From Candidatus Woesearchaeota archaeon (lineage in GTDB: Archaea > Nanobdellota > Nanobdellia > SCGC-AAA011-G17 > PNOQ01): a stretch of 64,000 nucleotides of DNA. Of the stretch, positions 5,226-52,482 are shown piece after piece. The translations under genes and the position numbers were made by a program. The stretch lies in contig JBDRML010000045.1 in assembly GCA_043812195.1 (NCBI GenBank), positions 972-64,971 of the forward strand, written 5' to 3'. Numbering within the stretch: the stretch's first letter is position 1; each line of letters opens with the position of its first letter. The notes under the pieces are model-generated. The model did no database searches. It had not been told where the DNA came from and saw only the letters and a program-made list of their open reading frames with translations.

Positions 5226-5459
5226 ATGTTAAAATATGAATTTCCAAATAAAGATACTGTAAATATTACACTAGACGGATTAATGACACCCAGAGAATTC
5301 TTAAAATTTCATGAAGAACTCCAAAACACAGGAAACACAAAAAGATATGGTTTAGTTCATATTGGAAGTAGAATTTGTGAAGGTAGCCCACCAAGACTAT
5401 CATATAGAATCCTAAGAGAAAAAGAACTGGATTTAATTAAAAGAGAAGACAGAAGATAA
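5226..5459 (+). CDS. Hypothetical small protein
   Basis: 77-aa ORF with no recognisable domain. Confidence 0.3.
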   Translation: MLKYEFPNKDTVNITLDGLMTPREFLKFHEELQNTGNTKRYGLVHIGSRICEGSPPRLSYRILREKELDLIKREDRR

Positions 5460-5909
5460 TTATAATTCTTTTATTTCTTTTTTTAATTTTTCAACATCTA
5501 AATCTCTATGAATACTTAAAAACCTCAAATAAGCAATTTTATCCATTTCTCTCAGCCTATTTAACACCATAGAACCTATCAAAGAACTATGCACTTGGGC
5601 CATATCATTACTTCTTAATTCCTTCTCTATTTCATCCACTAAAGCCTCAAATTTACCTATTTCAGCCCTTTTCTTACCACAAGAACCATATAAACCCCTC
5701 AATAATTTCTCCCTATTAAAAGACTCAATTTTGCCATCTTTCTTAACAACGAATAAGCTCAATTTACTAAGATTTTCAGCAGTTGTCCATCTCTTAGTAC
5801 ACCTTAAACACTCTCTTCTCCTTCTAATTCTCTCAAAATCAACAGAATTTCTCTTATCTATTACCTTACTTCCTAAATTTTGGCAATATGGGCACTTAAT
5901 AAGCATCAC
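5460..5909 (-). CDS. nrdR: NrdR-like transcriptional repressor (zinc ribbon + ATP-cone)
   Basis: MLIKCPYCQNLGSKVIDKRNSVDFERIRRRRECLRCTKRWTTAE is the NrdR zinc-ribbon signature, and an ATP-cone follows. Confidence 0.7.
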   Translation of the reverse strand: MMLIKCPYCQNLGSKVIDKRNSVDFERIRRRRECLRCTKRWTTAENLSKLSLFVVKKDGKIESFNREKLLRGLYGSCGKKRAEIGKFEALVDEIEKELRSNDMAQVHSSLIGSMVLNRLREMDKIAYLRFLSIHRDLDVEKLKKEIKEL

Positions 5910-39665: not shown

Positions 39666-40607
39666 ATGAAACCAATTATCTGGAGTCCAAGCAGAATCTC
39701 ATTAGCATCTCAATGCCTTAAAGCATATTTTTACAATTACCTCTCAAAAGAAAAATTCCCAACAAATGGAGAATTTGCAGCAGGGGTTCTATTACATAGA
39801 AAAATGGAAAAATTCTACAAAGAAGACAGAACCCCAAAATACAAATCCCCAGAATCATTCGCAAACGCATCTATGGCTCAATGGCAAAGATTTAATATTA
39901 ATACAGGAAAAAGCAGAGGGCAACCAATAAGATGGAGAAGTGAGAATCACCCATATATACTAAAACATATGATAGGAGAAGCTTGTAAAACAGTATACCC
40001 AGCATATGCTAATCAACAACCACCAATAGAAACAGAGTTTTCATTTGAGTTTTGTTTTGGCAATAGATTTTACAGAGGAAGTATAGATGAAATAAGAAAT
40101 AATGCAACTATAAGAGATCATAAATCAGACGGATTTGAAAGACCACAGACCTCACTAGATAATGATATTCAATTCACTAATTATGCCTTAGCAATATCTC
40201 AATATCTTTACGCAGATAAAAAACTTAGGAAAAAAGTTAATATATCAAAAGAATTAAAAGAAGAAATAAAAAATAAAGAAAAAATTATCTTACCAATAGG
40301 TATAGAAATCCATTATTTAAGAACAGGTAATATAAAAACAACAACAAGAAATGACTCACATTATTATGAACTAACAGAGATAATAGATGAACTAGAAGAA
40401 CAAATAAGAAGAAGAAATTTCAAAAGAAACCTTGGTAAACATTGTGACTTCTGTCTTTTCAATGAAGCTTGTGCAAGAGATACAAAACAATCAAATATTA
40501 CAATCCCCGAAAACCCACAATTACAATTATTTGCAACTTCAGAACCAAAACCAAAAAATATCAAGCAATTAAGATTATCATTTCCAAGAAAATCAAAAAA
40601 AGTGTAG
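39666..40607 (+). CDS. PD-(D/E)XK nuclease of the Cas4/RecB family (stand-alone)
   Basis: SPSRISLASQCLKAYFYNYL N-terminus and a C-terminal Cys cluster GKHCDFCLFNEAC. Its stop codon lies inside the left 14-bp direct repeat. Confidence 0.6.
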   Translation: MKPIIWSPSRISLASQCLKAYFYNYLSKEKFPTNGEFAAGVLLHRKMEKFYKEDRTPKYKSPESFANASMAQWQRFNINTGKSRGQPIRWRSENHPYILKHMIGEACKTVYPAYANQQPPIETEFSFEFCFGNRFYRGSIDEIRNNATIRDHKSDGFERPQTSLDNDIQFTNYALAISQYLYADKKLRKKVNISKELKEEIKNKEKIILPIGIEIHYLRTGNIKTTTRNDSHYYELTEIIDELEEQIRRRNFKRNLGKHCDFCLFNEACARDTKQSNITIPENPQLQLFATSEPKPKNIKQLRLSFPRKSKKV

Positions 40608-40616
40608 GCAAGTGTA
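40603..40616. repeat. Left 14-bp direct repeat GTAGGCAAGTGTAA (partial copy of the rnpB 3' end); putative attL
   Basis: Identical 14-mer occurs at 52548..52561, where it forms the 3' end of the RNase P RNA gene. Confidence 0.65.
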
Positions 40617-40705
40617 ACCTCTAAAGTAGTTTATACTTCTTTTGTATATTATAGTAATTTAGTTAATTATATAAATATTTCTGTTAGTATTAAAAGGGGT
40701 TAGAA

Positions 40706-45099: not shown

Positions 45100-45432
45100 T
45101 TGAAAGGAGGTGAAAATGGCAAGATGAAGAAATTAATTCTAATTGGATTATTTTTAGTGATGATTGCTTTTGTAGTATTCTCTCAAACTGATGATATGCA
45201 ACAATCCCCAGAGTTATCTAACATAAGACTCTCAAAAGGTGTGGATTGTGAAGTGATTTGTAATGGCGGATGTGCACCAGCTCCAGATGGTTGGAATTTG
45301 ACTGAGAATATAGGAACATCTGGTGGGTGGTCTTCAAATGGGGCTGGCGGTAGATGTGCTTGGTCTGTAAATGAAAATGGATGGCAATATTATCCAGGCG
45401 TAGAAAGGATGTGTTGTTATTTCCAAAATTAA
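45100..45432 (+). CDS. Small Cys-rich secreted protein
   Basis: Signal peptide; CEVICNGGC...GGRCAW...MCCY. Confidence 0.45.
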   Translation: MKGGENGKMKKLILIGLFLVMIAFVVFSQTDDMQQSPELSNIRLSKGVDCEVICNGGCAPAPDGWNLTENIGTSGGWSSNGAGGRCAWSVNENGWQYYPGVERMCCYFQN

Positions 45433-46034
45433 TTTTTTCTTTTATTTTCATTTTCATACAACCGATTATAAAGCGTTTGGTGATTCAACCCTAATTCCTT
45501 AGCAACATCCCTTAAGCTTCTCCCTTTATCCAGTTCAGCCTTAGCATAATGCTCATTAAATTTAACTTTATTCCTTCCCCATTTCCCCCTTTCTTTTATA
45601 GCTCTGGCTACACCATCCTTAACTCTTTCAGCTATTATGCTTCTTTCAAACTGAGCAAAACCTGAAACAATAGTAAAAAAGAACTCTCCCATAGCTGAAG
45701 TTGTATCTATGTTTTCATTATAGGAAACAAAATCAATACCTAAAGCCTTAAACTCATCTAAAGTTGTAAGCAGATGTTTTGATGATCTTCCAAATCTATC
45801 ATAGCGATAAACTAAGCAAACATCAAACTTTCTTTTTCTTGCGTCATCCATTAATTTATTTAGTTCTGGTCTTGATTCCTTAGCTCCAGATATTCCCTTA
45901 TCAATATATTTCTTAAAGACTTTCCAGCCTCTCTTCTTGCAGTAATCGGCTAAAAGACTATCTTGGGTTTTGATATCCTGTTTATCCTTTGTGCTTACAC
46001 GCATGTAAACCCCAGCAGTTTTATTTTGTTTCAT
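45429..46034 (-). CDS. Serine recombinase (resolvase/invertase family)
   Basis: VYMRVSTKDKQD catalytic Ser region, resolvase core and C-terminal HTH. Confidence 0.85.
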   Translation of the reverse strand: MKQNKTAGVYMRVSTKDKQDIKTQDSLLADYCKKRGWKVFKKYIDKGISGAKESRPELNKLMDDARKRKFDVCLVYRYDRFGRSSKHLLTTLDEFKALGIDFVSYNENIDTTSAMGEFFFTIVSGFAQFERSIIAERVKDGVARAIKERGKWGRNKVKFNEHYAKAELDKGRSLRDVAKELGLNHQTLYNRLYENENKRKN

Positions 46035-46058: not shown

Positions 46059-46502
46059 TTATCTACATCCTTTGGAAACTTCGTAGTTATACGAGGTTTG
46101 TAATAATTCTTTTTGCATCTCTTTAGGAGCTTTTGTAATTTCCATGCCTGTTGTTAATGGTATTTCCTTTCTCTCTATTGCTTTTTGTATTTCTTTAGGA
46201 GCTTTTTCTAACATTAAAACTTGTCTAATCCATCCCTCTGAACATCCAATTCTTCTTGCTACTTCTCTAAATCCACCTTTTTTACCACGACCGCCTTGAA
46301 ACTGCGTATCACTACGCATTAATTTCTTTATAGCTTCTCTTTGGTCGTGGATTGTCATTGATTGTCTTGCTACTTCTGAATAACCTTTTGAGGGTCTCCC
46401 TTCTCCCCCTCTACCTCTTATTGAATCAGTTTTCGTAGCACTACGAATACTCAATAACTTTTTTATAGCTTCTCTTTGGTCGTTTATTTTTACATCAGTC
46501 AT
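46059..46502 (-). CDS. ParB-like HTH protein with an internal tandem repeat
   Basis: VARRIGCSEGWIRQVLMLEKAPKEIQKAI is ParB/Spo0J HTH-like. The segment DQREAIKKL...GRG...EVAR occurs twice, mirrored by a ~25-bp DNA repeat at ~46322 and ~46462. Confidence 0.45.
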   Translation of the reverse strand: MTDVKINDQREAIKKLLSIRSATKTDSIRGRGGEGRPSKGYSEVARQSMTIHDQREAIKKLMRSDTQFQGGRGKKGGFREVARRIGCSEGWIRQVLMLEKAPKEIQKAIERKEIPLTTGMEITKAPKEMQKELLQTSYNYEVSKGCR

Positions 46503-47590: not shown

Positions 47591-47703
47591 TTTGATTTTA
47601 TGATTGTGTTAAACTCTTCAATTATATACGAAAATGCCAAGATTATGCTGGCTAACCAGAACAAAAACATTAATGCTATTCCAAACCAAAAAATCGGTTT
47701 CAC
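47482..47703 (-). CDS. Small membrane protein
   Basis: 73 aa with two TM helices. Confidence 0.35.
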   Translation of the reverse strand: MKPIFWFGIALMFLFWLASIILAFSYIIEEFNTIIKSNWMLLIAYYILGILAFVLVLIGLIGNKKEKEGGTET

Positions 47704-47939
47704 TCTTCAACCCTCAGAAAACCAAGCAAAGATTCAAATATAATTTCTTTGTGTTTATCCTTTTCAACATACATGTTCAATTCTGTTTTCCCAATTTCCA
47801 ATTCCTTTGAATTTTTGAGTGAATGCAATGTTATGAGAAAAAAAGCATTGCTGTCTTTAATCTGTTTTACAGCTTCTTCTTTTGCTTTTGCTATATTCTT
47901 TTCTGTTGATTTTATTTCCCAGAATGTTTTGTATTTCAC
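47700..47939 (-). CDS. Hypothetical protein
   Basis: 79-aa ORF. Confidence 0.3.
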   Translation of the reverse strand: MKYKTFWEIKSTEKNIAKAKEEAVKQIKDSNAFFLITLHSLKNSKELEIGKTELNMYVEKDKHKEIIFESLLGFLRVEE

Positions 47940-47984
47940 TTATTGTACCTCCTTGCTATCTTTTTTGTACAAAAATATCGGGAT

Positions 47985-48262
47985 ACTCAATTGTGCTTTT
48001 GGCACGTGGCTGGCTGACCATGAGATACCCCGATATCTCAGATCTGAGATTATGAACCAGCCACTACAAGGGAGAAGTAGAGGCTGGAAATGGGTTATGT
48101 AATTGATGGCAAGCATTAGATTATAAGCCCACTTCATCGGAGGTGAAGGCTGACAAAACCTATTTCTCAATGAAGCAGGCTTAGGATGTAGCCTGAAAAA
48201 AAGTGAAAGTGGCAAATCCTTCCACTTAACAGGACTACCCCACATGCGAGTATTAATATGAG
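47985..48262. ncRNA. Candidate structured non-coding RNA of unknown class (GC-rich, multiple hairpins) inside the element
   Basis: GC well above the flanks. Complementary pairs include GTGGCTGG/CCAGCCAC, palindromic TCTCAGATCTGAGA, CAGGCT/AGCCTG, AAGTGG/CCACTT and ATATCGGG/CCCGATAT. Overlapping ORFs translate to P/W/S-rich low-quality peptides. Confidence 0.4.
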
Positions 48263-48264
48263 TT

Positions 48265-48450
48265 TTAGGTGTCATCATCTATCTCCTTATTAAAAACGGC
48301 GTTAACACTATTCTTTAGCTCTTTTTTGGCGATTAATTGTTGTTTAACCCAATACTTGTAACGGCATGAATCTGAGCAAAAGCGTGCATTTCTCTGGCTC
48401 CAAGAATCTATTTTTTTCGAACAATTTAAGCAAAATCCAACATTTACCAT
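48265..48450 (-). CDS. Small zinc-ribbon protein
   Basis: CLNCSKK...CSDSCRYKYW. Confidence 0.4.
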   Translation of the reverse strand: MVNVGFCLNCSKKIDSWSQRNARFCSDSCRYKYWVKQQLIAKKELKNSVNAVFNKEIDDDT

Positions 48451-48477
48451 TTTGATTTTTTATACTTAAATAAGAAA

Positions 48478-48540
48478 ACACCCTGACAACCCTGACAATC
48501 CTGACATTTGCGTCAACCTTGTCAACCTTGTCAACCTATT
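48478..48540. repeat. Iteron array: 3 x CC(C/T)TGACAA, then 3 x TTGTCAACC in inverted orientation, at 9-bp spacing
   Basis: Sequence acaCCCTGACAACCCTGACAATCCTGACATttgcgTCAACCTTGTCAACCTTGTCAACCtatt lies immediately 3' of the primase-helicase gene. Confidence 0.7.
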
Positions 48541-48547
48541 TCCTAAT

Positions 48548-50119
48548 TTAAAGTCTTTGGACGTCACCCCCATTTTCGCTTTTTTGATGCTTTATTCCTT
48601 TCCAGCATTGTACTCTTTGCTTAATTCCTTCAATCTCTAATTGCGGTCTGTAATCTTCGACTCTAATACTTCTTTGCAAATCCCTATGAAATGTGCCCTC
48701 TGAAAGTGGTGGATAACTCTTTTCCCTACAATAATCAGTGTAATGTGTAAACAATTCTCTTTTTTGCTCAAACGATTCAGGTGAAATCTTTATACAATCC
48801 ATAATAAATGCCTTTACACTATCGGACATTCGAATATATTCTTCTCTAACTTCCTTCACTGATTTTGCAGTACTGAAATCTTTGTTATCCAAAAGTCTCT
48901 TCAAACCGATAATAGCCCAATTTAAAATTCCAGATAACTCAGATTCTGTTGTTAATTTTGATAATAAATCCTTGTTAGCACTAGATCCGATAAATTGATT
49001 TGGAAAATTGATTATGATCCATCTTCTAAAAAATGCATCCGAATCATCGGGAGTTTTAGGAACTGCATTACAACTAAAAATCAATTTTGCGTAATTATCA
49101 AAGAAAAACTCATCCTTAAATTTTCTTTCTGCTCGTATGCTGTCCTCTCCTGTCAATGCTTTAAATATTCCAGTTTCTTTCAGCTCCGCTGAGGATAAAT
49201 CAGCATAAATATTAGCTAATTTCCCAAACAAAGATGACACCGAAAACCGATTTATACACAGTTGTTGCAAAGGTATTGCACTAATATTCTGATTTCCTAA
49301 AAAATATCGTAATACATTCAACAAAGTAGATTTACCGTTTGCCCCAACACCAACAAACATTATAGCTTTATGAATATTATATTTTTTGAATAATACATAA
49401 CCAAAAATTTCCTGAATTATATTATGTGTATCCTCTGGCAAAATCTGTTTTAAAAATTCTTCAAACTTATTGCATTTAGATTCTGAATCAAAATCCACAG
49501 GTATTTTGTTGAAAAATATTATATCAAAGTTATGTGGCTCTACTTCCATTGTATTTAAATCCAAAATCCCATTATTCAAACATATCTTATAAATCGGTTC
49601 AACAATTTTAATTCTATTTTTGTATGATGATCTCCTAATATGTGCCAACGTTTCATTTACAACGTGAATCGACGATAATCCACCAAGCCCTTTTTGAATA
49701 AATTGTGCAATTTTAATTTCTCCATAAGGAACATAAACACCACTTTCATAAACAAAAATCTCATCTGTGTCCTGAACAGTAAACAAATAAAATTTATTCA
49801 TACAAAGGGCAGATAGCCTATACAAAGCCTCTGAATTTTTTGTGTCTTTAGCATTCAACATGGATTTTATTTTTTGGAATTCCTGCTGTACACTTTCTTG
49901 AACATCATCTGCTTCAAGAGAATCCAATATTTTATCAAAGTCTATAAAAAAACCATCAGTTTTTTCATTTAATATATTTACCTGATGCATTAAATCATCT
50001 TCACTTTTTGCAAATCTTATTTTGTTTCTAATTCTATTTCTTTCTGAAACTGCCCATTCCCTAGTATGGGGTAATATTTTATTTTCAACAATTTGTTTTA
50101 TCTGAATCAAATCTGCCAT
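48548..50119 (-). CDS. D5-like / P4-type primase C-terminal domain + SF3 helicase (replication initiator)
   Basis: Walker A VGVGANGKST, a Walker B region and overall primase_Cterm/D5_N-like architecture; 523 aa. Confidence 0.75.
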   Translation of the reverse strand: MADLIQIKQIVENKILPHTREWAVSERNRIRNKIRFAKSEDDLMHQVNILNEKTDGFFIDFDKILDSLEADDVQESVQQEFQKIKSMLNAKDTKNSEALYRLSALCMNKFYLFTVQDTDEIFVYESGVYVPYGEIKIAQFIQKGLGGLSSIHVVNETLAHIRRSSYKNRIKIVEPIYKICLNNGILDLNTMEVEPHNFDIIFFNKIPVDFDSESKCNKFEEFLKQILPEDTHNIIQEIFGYVLFKKYNIHKAIMFVGVGANGKSTLLNVLRYFLGNQNISAIPLQQLCINRFSVSSLFGKLANIYADLSSAELKETGIFKALTGEDSIRAERKFKDEFFFDNYAKLIFSCNAVPKTPDDSDAFFRRWIIINFPNQFIGSSANKDLLSKLTTESELSGILNWAIIGLKRLLDNKDFSTAKSVKEVREEYIRMSDSVKAFIMDCIKISPESFEQKRELFTHYTDYCREKSYPPLSEGTFHRDLQRSIRVEDYRPQLEIEGIKQRVQCWKGIKHQKSENGGDVQRL

Positions 50120-51282: not shown

Positions 51283-52482
51283 TCAACTAATTTTATTCAT
51301 AATCTCTTTTAACCTTTCAGATTTTACTTCTTTCATTAACAATTCAACAAAAGACTTAATCTGGCTTTCTGATTCCTTAAATTCCATAGCTCCTTTGTAA
51401 TCTAAGGGTCTTCCACACTTACTACAAAACTTATTAGTTGCAGAATTTTCATAACCACAAACAGCACAGGTTTTAGGTTTGGTTTTATCTCCATTCTGTT
51501 TTTCATTGATTAATTTACCTGCTTTCTCCAATTGCTTTCTATCAACATCAGCTCCAGATAAATGAATATAAACTTTAGGCATTTGGCTATCTGCACTCCA
51601 ACCAGCTATGATCCTTAATTCTGCTTCAGTAAAACCATCCCCTGCTAAATGTGTTAATCTACTATGTCTTAACAAATGTGGATATATTTTCTTGTTAAGT
51701 TTAGAATTTTTGGCATATTTATTTAGAATAGTATGCAGACCATTAAAACCAAGTCCCATATCCAAATGAGAACCTATATTAGTCCATAAAGGAGCTTCTG
51801 GATCATTCTTGCTTGGATGTTGGTTTAACCAACTAGTTAAATCTGGCACAGAATCTAACAACCTAATTCTCCTACTGCCTGTCTTTCCAGAAACAACAAC
51901 CACAGCTCCATATTCATCTAAAGCAACATTCTTTAATCTTACATTTAGCCATTCACCACTCCTACAACCACTCTCATATAAAGTAAATACCAATGCCTTA
52001 TCTCTAAAGTTATCTGCACAGCCAACTAGCTTTAATATATCCTCTTTAGTAAAAATATCATCTGGCACTTTAAACTTCTTATTTCTTTTTATCTTAATAT
52101 CTTCAACAACTTCTGACTTACCTATTCTCTTAAAAAAAGTTTTAATTGATAGTTTTATTTGTTCTATTGTTTGTTTGGAATACATACCTTTTCTCTTAAA
52201 TCTCTTACTTTGAACATTATATCCATTCTCCAATAAGTCTATTATAAAATCATCTACAGCCTTTTTTGTTAATTGATCTACTTCCTTCCCTGTGTTTCTA
52301 AATAACATAGATAAATTCTTTATGTTAATGCTTCTTGAATGAGCAGATAACCCATTTTTTAATAAAGTCCTATTGTATTCTAACATAGTTTTTCTTTGCT
52401 TTTCTGTTAGTCTATCATCTTCTATTTGTTTTTTGATTCTGTTCTCTTTATTTCTAATGTCTTTATCTCTGGCAATTTCCAT
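51283..52482 (-). CDS. Tyrosine recombinase / integrase with C-terminal zinc ribbon
   Basis: Catalytic region HLLRHSRLTHLA...KVYIHL (R..H..Y) and C-terminal CAVCGYEN...CSKCGRPL. Confidence 0.85.
   Translation of the reverse strand: MEIARDKDIRNKENRIKKQIEDDRLTEKQRKTMLEYNRTLLKNGLSAHSRSINIKNLSMLFRNTGKEVDQLTKKAVDDFIIDLLENGYNVQSKRFKRKGMYSKQTIEQIKLSIKTFFKRIGKSEVVEDIKIKRNKKFKVPDDIFTKEDILKLVGCADNFRDKALVFTLYESGCRSGEWLNVRLKNVALDEYGAVVVVSGKTGSRRIRLLDSVPDLTSWLNQHPSKNDPEAPLWTNIGSHLDMGLGFNGLHTILNKYAKNSKLNKKIYPHLLRHSRLTHLAGDGFTEAELRIIAGWSADSQMPKVYIHLSGADVDRKQLEKAGKLINEKQNGDKTKPKTCAVCGYENSATNKFCSKCGRPLDYKGAMEFKESESQIKSFVELLMKEVKSERLKEIMNKIS

Follow-up and report, generated by a model that had tools for sequence, protein, structure and literature searches.

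An integrative element of about 12 kb, carried by a Woesearchaeota (DPANN) genome, very probably starts its replication at the inverted array of short repeats described here. This array was analysed in the window, that is, the whole 64-kb stretch of DNA, and in loci that encode relatives of the adjacent helicase. The reading as an origin is supported because arrays recur at the 3' ends of homologous helicase genes and the corresponding region of plasmid pRN1 is required for replication. The putative origin is of a kind already known from pRN1, SaPI and P4, and the window appears to hold a compact, permuted variant in which the two halves are swapped. The first-pass annotation had proposed a likely replication origin of the element, and this proposal is now supported by homology and by conservation next to homologous helicases, including that of pRN1.

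Anatomy of the iteron array

Six 9-bp units, three per strand, occupy 48481-48536 of the window in a single unbroken 9-bp register. Their order on the + strand is CCCTGACAA CCCTGACAA TCCTGACAT TT GCGTCAACC TTGTCAACC TTGTCAACC, and the 5-nt cores (TGACA/TGTCA) start at 48484, 48493, 48502, 48511, 48520 and 48529. Each arm is flanked on its outer side, at a fixed offset from the outermost unit, by a T-rich box that is almost devoid of G and ends in TTTAA. Boxes included, the dyad unit measures 90 bp (48464-48553), with its symmetry centre at 48508.5. The features of the array and the two flanking genes are as follows.

48481-48489, + strand reading: unit 1, CCCTGACAA, perfect
48490-48498, + strand reading: unit 2, CCCTGACAA, perfect
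48499-48507, + strand reading: unit 3, TCCTGACAT, inner, degenerate
48510-48518, + strand reading: unit 4, GCGTCAACC, inner, degenerate
48519-48527, + strand reading: unit 5, TTGTCAACC, perfect
48528-48536, + strand reading: unit 6, TTGTCAACC, perfect
48481-48507, + strand: arm A, three 9-bp iterons, a direct repeat family with the same units in relatives L001, L005, L008 and L037
48510-48536, - strand: arm B, three 9-bp iterons, GGTTGACAA, GGTTGACAA and GGTTGACGC (the last inner and degenerate), in inverted pairs
48466-48478, - strand: box A, TTTTCTTATTTAA, 9/13 to the consensus TTCTATATTTTAA, starting 5 nt past the outermost arm A core
48539-48551, + strand: box B, TTTCCTAATTTAA, 9/13 matches at offset 5, overlapping the helicase stop codon (48548-48550)
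48548-50119, - strand: Rep helicase, 523 aa, by Pfam, TIGR01613, AlphaFold2, Foldseek and BLASTP to ORF904
48265-48450, - strand: zinc-ribbon ORF, 61 aa (C..C...FCS..C), with a weak DUF2116 match, directly downstream of the putative origin

Arm A reads TTGTCAGGG on the - strand and is oriented toward box A, while arm B reads GCGTCAACC TTGTCAACC TTGTCAACC on the + strand and is oriented toward box B. Four of the six units are perfect (CCCTGACAA / GGTTGACAA), the degenerate inner cores being TGACAT and GCGTCA. The array is intergenic, 11 nt past the helicase stop codon and 30 nt ahead of the zinc-ribbon ATG (48448-50).

The sequence and a repeat finder, which returned a direct family of three copies at 9-bp spacing and a 40-nt imperfect inverted repeat, confirmed the 3+3 inverted array with 9-bp spacing of the first-pass annotation, and its location between an SF3 helicase gene and a zinc-ribbon gene was as claimed. 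Other details needed revision. The three plus three repeats are all present, but only four are perfect and the two inner cores are degenerate. Between the two sets of 9-mers there are 2 nt instead of the 5 nt stated. The inverted arms had been recognised, but the extent of the symmetry was understated, as the mirrored boxes ending in TTTAA widen the dyad to 90 bp.

With an exact 5-mer detector, this array was the only one in the 64-kb window to score at least 5, a score reached anywhere in 2/100 dinucleotide-preserving shuffles of the whole window. A chance origin of the array is not plausible, and the shuffles speak against random low-complexity DNA, which had been named earlier as a reading that would overturn the origin. 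The motif CCTGACAA showed no further enrichment across the 64-kb window, and no second motif cluster was found there. A 7-mer consensus search with one mismatch allowed was dropped, as it was flooded with AT-rich noise.

Over 50 arrays, arm-to-arm complementarity was 96% at the cores and 51% at inter-core positions (25% for the inter-core positions of the window array). A single strand of the window array folds into 6-bp helices interrupted by 3x3 internal loops (-9.1 kcal/mol, z -3.3), and no Rfam family was found at 47600-48700. Because the cores pair between the arms and the inter-core positions do so poorly, these origins are best described as motif arrays, not as a selected hairpin.

The adjacent helicase

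Rep matches Pfam profiles for D5_N, an SF3 ATPase (DUF5906) and a Pox_D5-like C-terminus; its N-terminus is helical, and residues ~420-511 make up a winged-helix domain at the C-terminal end. The protein matched TIGR01613 ('phage/plasmid primase, P4 family') with 218 bits (cutoff 108.7) and shares 100% identity with a protein from a Candidatus Woesearchaeota MAG. It had no match to PF09250 or PF01807, primase domains that some of its homologues do carry, and no primase was found in any other scanned ORF of the element, which counts against the origin reading. The name 'D5-like primase-helicase' given earlier was therefore too broad: the helicase and winged-helix parts of the P4/ORF904 family are present and the primase domain is absent.

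In the AlphaFold2 model of Rep (pLDDT 84), the C-terminal helical domain (421-511) ends in a beta hairpin (strands 499-502 and 505-511), whose wing-tip residue, Q504, is encoded at 48608-48610. The best Foldseek match to the model was SaPI5 PriRep 7OLA (7ola_A/C; E 5e-22, TM 0.67-0.70, 439 columns, C-terminal domain included), which was also the best match by sequence, and the 7OLA matches include chains with a resolved C-terminal domain. ORF904 of pRN1 aligned with Rep by BLASTP at 29% identity (E 4e-53; residues 60-510 of Rep against 327-835), up to the same C-terminal hairpin.

Conservation in related loci

Of 8000 candidates scored, 1505 were homologues of Rep at E<=0.001. The comparison set comprised 240 fetched loci encoding Rep relatives. 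In a strict test, an array was counted if it was inverted, had two or more exact cores in each arm spaced by 8-12 bp and lay within 280 nt past helicase residue 510. Positives were found in 38/118 loci, 18 of them perfect 3+3 arrays, against 9/1046 control segments from the same loci; a relaxed detector returned 54/119 loci. The search for the iterons in related elements or plasmids, suggested as a check in the earlier annotation, was thus positive for the same inverted layout in these loci and also in plasmids, including pRN1; absence from homologous elements, named there as a refutation, is the opposite of what was observed. That the array was found in a third to half of the homologous loci with the detectors used counts against the origin reading.

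Positive loci span DPANN, Bathyarchaeia, Thermoplasmatota, Nitrososphaeria (Nitrososphaerales) and a few bacteria, and the array period is 9 bp almost everywhere among them. The closest relatives (49-58% identity, Woese- and Pacearchaeota) share the same architecture after a conserved C-terminal motif, CWKGIK, with TGACA, TAACA (archaeon GW2011_AR20) or GGACA as the core, depending on the locus. Across lineages the cores include TGACA, TAACA, GGACA, AGACA, GGTCA, TTCCA, GGATG and others, both arms always changing together. L004 and L005 have both arms in one 9-bp register, as in the window.

The arrays lie past the stop codon in the window, L004, L023, L027 and others; elsewhere they fall within the helicase ORF, where all three frames are represented. 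Because of this placement, the constraint must act on the DNA. A comparable origin within coding sequence is ori-lambda, inside gene O. In Bathyarchaeia (L014-L020, L094, L113 and others), the helicase ORF reads through the whole putative origin, ~0-520 nt past residue 510. The iterons are translated there as (V/M)S-x three times and LDT three times, and the ORF ends in a conserved ~60-aa domain (...EKLEQLKTWLxENKD..GLVD...GKWGVK).

The helicase is the only gene common to all 240 related loci. Homologues of the integrase and of the resolvase of the element were detected in 17 and 8 of them, respectively, and tblastn retrieved no homologue of the zinc-ribbon (61 aa), 113-aa, winged-helix or ParB-like proteins in the 240 loci. 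A scan of viral contigs retrieved distant helicases only (≤39% identity). Haloarchaeal plasmids had no clear arrays with the detector used, and the C-termini of their helicases align poorly.

T-rich boxes and putative half-origins

Boxes A and B are exact positional mirrors of each other about 48508.5. Across arrays, the flank consensus is AGG.TTTTT.....TTTAAT. When a box was called from at least 9/13 positions matching TTCTATATTTTAA at the conserved offset, it was present on 40/76 module-side flanks of long-spacer arrays, against 1/76 opposite flanks and 20/1040 random sites; among short-spacer arrays, 6/24 outer flanks carried it. The box is constant while the iteron core varies between lineages. 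Each half-origin is accordingly made up of three iterons with a box after them.

Half-origins occur in two arrangements. They stand face to face in most lineages and in the DPANN loci L003 and L081, with the boxes inside a 50-200-nt AT-rich spacer, and back to back, with the boxes outside, in the window, L001, L002, L005, L008 and L037. The central spacer measures 55 nt in L001 (73% AT), 25 nt in L002, ~60 nt in L003, ~190 nt in L081 and 2 nt in the window. A central AT-rich spacer is required in the SaPI and pRN1 origins, and its absence from the window counts against the origin reading. The same is true of the array flanks, which are not more AT-rich than the 30% GC background.

An AT-rich unwinding element had been suggested at 48400-48470. 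This stretch is mostly coding and its AT content is no higher than that of the 30% GC background; the conserved AT elements are instead the two boxes. GC skew, another proposed check, was of no help, as both GC and AT skew around the array follow the direction of transcription and are uninformative for replication at this scale. Relative to the ATG of the ORF at 48265-48450, box A is at about -16 to -28, and it is possible that it doubles as the TATA box of this downstream zinc-ribbon gene.

Proposed recognition by the helicase winged helix

Covariation was analysed in 35 non-redundant helicases with xGAC-form iterons, over 394 aligned columns. The highest mutual information with the variable iteron base x was found for the column of Q504, at the hairpin tip (0.948 bit; 0.794 for the next column), and label shuffles, which ignore phylogeny, reached this maximum in 11/300 trials. 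Residues Q, S, P and V occur with TGAC; N, H, S and R with GGAC; K with TAAC; and Y with AGAC. The Y-AGAC pairing is present in five lineages whose nearest relatives fall in other classes. A counterexample is provided by pRN1 and pHEN7, which both have W at the 504 position and differ in their cores. Residue 504 did not stand out in a pairwise same/different covariation test, as one iteron class can go with several residues. The pattern, which is a statistical one, supports recognition of the iterons by the helicase's own winged helix, although not through a clean code. The ParB-like and wHTH proteins offered as binders in the first-pass annotation have no detectable homologues in array-carrying loci, and it is unlikely that they bind the array.

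Proposed mechanism

From these comparisons we infer how the origin is bound, where it melts, in which geometry helicases are loaded and that it is active. After excision, the SF3 helicase of the element would recognise the 9-bp iterons through its C-terminal winged helix. Each half, with three iterons and a TTTAA box, would serve as one helicase-loading unit, and two opposed units would load two oppositely directed hexamers, leading to bidirectional unwinding. Opening of the DNA would most likely begin at the two boxes, which lie outside the arms here and inside the AT-rich spacer in pRN1 and most relatives. Priming would come from a host enzyme or from another enzyme encoded by the element, because no primase domain was matched.

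The putative integrated element

The features that delimit the element, together with its recombinases and its ParB-HTH-like gene, are listed below.

51283-52482, - strand: tyrosine integrase with a C-terminal zinc ribbon, by profile matches; homologues in 17 related loci
45429-46034: serine resolvase; homologues in 8 related loci
46059-46502, - strand: ParB-HTH-like protein, ~2 kb from the array
52548-52561, no strand assigned: candidate att core, GTAGGCAAGTGTAA, identical to the terminal 14 nt of the RNase P RNA gene and adjoining the integrase
40604-40617, no strand assigned: second copy of the att core, a 14-nt direct repeat and the candidate far end
52548-52847, - strand: RNase P RNA gene

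With the terminal 14 nt of the RNase P RNA gene repeated at 40604-40617, the sequence suggests an element of ~11.9 kb (~40.6-52.55 kb) that is inserted into this archaeal gene at its 3' end, 66 nt from where the integrase gene starts. Upstream of the array, the element contains a 113-aa ORF, a winged-helix protein gene and the tyrosine integrase gene. Related elements have tRNA genes beside their integrases instead of an RNase P RNA gene, and no report of integration into archaeal RNase P RNA genes was found in the literature.

A small zinc-ribbon gene with the pattern C..C...(F)CS..C also follows the array directly in L002 (archaeon GW2011_AR20), at ~5425-5680, and the helicases of L003, L037, L113 and L135 carry fused cysteine-rich tails. 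The zinc-ribbon protein may belong to the replication module as a conserved accessory.

A patch at 47945-48275 (- strand), immediately past the zinc-ribbon ORF, has a GC content of 0.43-0.50 against a background of 0.30. Compared with shuffles, its - strand folds with z = -5.8 (-109.5 kcal/mol) and its + strand with z = -2.6. The mechanical ORFs that overlap it are not protein-like, no Rfam match was obtained at E<=1, and blastn retrieved no similar sequence in the 240 related loci. The patch may be an element-encoded structured RNA of no recognised kind.

Further observations concern the genes of the element and its surroundings. The ParB-HTH-like gene (46059-46502) is internally duplicated, with 41-nt and 31-nt direct repeats and the peptide DQREAIKKL encoded twice. 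A PD-(D/E)XK (Cas4-like) nuclease gene (39666-40607, + strand) terminates within the far copy of the att-like repeat. Beyond the RNase P gene lies an ORF (53883-55031, - strand) whose product resembles, by eye, an RHS/YD-repeat C-terminal region. Along with the archaeal RNase P RNA, the window holds a thermosome gene and an archaeal rRNA operon. A group I intron (RF00028, 82.6 bits) was detected at 59170-59481 (- strand), within the 23S rRNA gene (57453-61378). This gene spans 3926 nt against 2987 nt for the model, so further insertions are likely.

Alternative explanations

The array could instead be a transcriptional operator for the downstream zinc-ribbon operon, bound by the helicase C-terminus, the winged-helix protein or the 113-aa protein. 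Box A (TTTTCTTATTTAA), at -16 to -28, resembles an archaeal TATA box, and the iterons are placed where a BRE-proximal repressor site would sit. Iteron plasmids, moreover, often pair origin function with autoregulation. However, an equivalent box is mirrored on the other side, where it points into the helicase 3' end, and many relatives have the array and both boxes inside the helicase ORF, hundreds of nucleotides from the next start codon. Neither the winged-helix nor the 113-aa protein has homologues in array-carrying loci, and the homologous pRN1 region is needed for replication even when relocated (PMC4234260). An operator in place of an origin is improbable; a secondary promoter role of the array region is possible. 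The array might also be a partition site, similar to a centromere, to which the ParB-HTH-like protein (46059-46502) binds, since such sites often consist of direct or inverted short repeats and the element does encode a protein with a ParB-HTH domain. Yet the gene is 2 kb away and has no detectable homologue in the related loci that carry arrays, and no partner ATPase was seen in the element, which makes this reading very unlikely.

Archaeal chromosomal origins are formed by inverted repeats about an unwinding element, next to an initiator gene, so the array might be an origin recognised by the host Orc1/Cdc6 (ORB-like) instead of the element helicase. Against this, the core varies among close elements of similar hosts (TGACA, TAACA and GGACA in DPANN) and covaries with the helicase, the same architecture is found in bacteria, which have no Orc1, and 9-bp units are far shorter than ORB elements; we regard recognition by Orc1/Cdc6 as very improbable. 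Genes for a resolvase (45429-46034) and an integrase (51283-52482) are both present in the element, and recombination sites are typically inverted repeats about a short spacer. It is nevertheless extremely unlikely that the array is a res/dif-like site of the serine resolvase or provides the tyrosine integrase with arm or core sites. A better att candidate is located at the 3' end of the RNase P RNA beside the integrase, the arrays invariably come after the helicase whereas the integrase and the resolvase are present in 17/240 and 8/240 loci, and three tandem 9-bp units per arm that covary with the helicase wing are unlike a recombinase core. There is, finally, a negligible probability that the array arose by chance as a low-complexity repeat, is what remains of a peptide repeat at a protein C-terminus or forms a terminator hairpin. 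In many relatives translation of the iterons does give tripeptide repeats, and the single strand does fold (-9.1 kcal/mol, z -3.3), but the shuffle statistics oppose chance and only the cores pair. Arrays also occur outside ORFs and in all three frames, and inverted symmetry would be meaningless for a peptide. Archaeal termination, for its part, uses T tracts and not hairpins.

Significance

To our knowledge, almost nothing is known about the replication of mobile elements in DPANN and other uncultured archaea. With the array read as an origin, the locus offers a concrete origin-initiator pair, made up of 90 bp of DNA and one 523-aa protein. The comparison suggests that ORF904/P4-family origins share a grammar of 9-bp iterons in threes plus a constant T-rich box, and it would reinterpret the 'stem-loop' of pRN1 as iteron arrays. 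The use of half-origins both face to face and back to back would limit models of how opposed SF3 helicases are loaded. Such a grammar could help to annotate origins, to predict incompatibility groups of archaeal plasmids and proviruses and to design shuttle vectors.

A broader proposal, which we put forward tentatively and hold to be somewhat less than an even bet, is that the half-origin is an autonomous helicase-loading module common to ORF904/P4-family helicases across Archaea, that the pRN1 'stem-loop' consists of two such modules face to face and that the residue at the Q504 position partly sets iteron specificity. Among archaea, the module would span DPANN, Bathyarchaeia, Thermoplasmatota, Nitrososphaeria and Sulfolobales plasmids. 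If the proposal is true, modules also work back to back without a spacer, the assembly of two hexamers does not require a melted centre common to both, and origin-helicase pairing is predictable from sequence.

Comparison with known systems

The minimal replicon of pRN1 needs a region of ~100 nt that starts 54 bp past orf904 and works when relocated on the plasmid (PMC4234260). Its AT-rich loop is itself required, and stem mutants regained replication when compensatory changes were made (Berkner et al. 2014, PMC4234260); the authors read the origin as a stem-loop, binding motifs not being identified (PMC4234260). The pRN1 origin sequence, TGTCCAtagTGTCCAacTTTTTTTTCTATTATTTTGA ... 58 nt ... GGACActatGGACA, can be read as two face-to-face modules of iterons plus box. 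As in the window, inverted units spaced at 9 bp (TGTCCA in pRN1) are followed by a box (TTTTTTCTATTATTTT in pRN1) just downstream of rep. The two differ in that pRN1 has two clear units per arm, within a perfect 21-bp inverted repeat, whereas the window has three per arm and its inter-core positions are not complementary. The boxes of pRN1 face inward into a 58-nt AT-rich loop, while in the window the arms are 2 nt apart and the boxes face outward. ORF904 also has a prim-pol domain, unlike the Rep of the window. Arm-to-arm pairing may matter in pRN1, and the poor pairing of the window arms counts against the origin reading. A module of iterons plus box is also found in pHEN7 (TGTCACcacTGTCACaacTTTTTTTCTATTAT). 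Salinibacter pSR11 and a Pediococcus plasmid have inverted short-repeat arrays just past rep, the comparison here covering the arrays only.

The Reps of SaPIs recognise iterons of 5-6 nt through a C-terminal winged helix (Qiao et al. 2022, PMC9371898). SaPI origins contain 6-12 iterons directly downstream of rep, with at least two per side in opposite orientations around an AT-rich centre (PMC9371898). The window resembles them (see also Ubeda et al.; PDB 7OLA, 7PDS) in its SF3 helicase with a C-terminal winged helix and in having at least six iterons downstream, here 3+3. SaPIs differ in being bacterial satellites, in the low (~20%) sequence similarity of their proteins to Rep and in the central AT-rich region that the window lacks. 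SaPI-type Reps also bind their cognate iterons specifically and melt the origin without ATP; on this point the window comparison offers the Q504 covariation, which is indirect and has pRN1 and pHEN7 as a counterexample.

Rep is a member of the P4 family according to TIGR01613, and in phage P4, as in the window, repeats directly follow the helicase gene. Type-1 repeats of 8 bp are present on either strand of the P4 crr, directly downstream of the alpha gene, and one pair is spaced by 9 bp. In contrast to the single array of the window, P4 needs two separate cis sites (ori and crr, 4.5 kb apart), and alpha has a primase domain. The likeness between alpha and Rep is confined to the ATPase core (24% over 226 aa).

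In classical iteron plasmids (RepA/Pi/TrfA), the repeats are 17-22 bp long, direct and in one orientation, and a Rep_3-type initiator recruits the host helicase. The window differs in its 9-bp inverted units and in having a helicase encoded next to them, and the scanned ORFs of the element included no Rep_3-type protein. The SV40/polyomavirus core origin is served by an SF3 helicase, large T antigen, and has spacerless inverted recognition repeats at its centre with melting sequences on both sides. This is the layout that the window would most resemble, as an analogy of mechanism only, given that the origin-binding domain and the sequences are unrelated and the host is eukaryotic.
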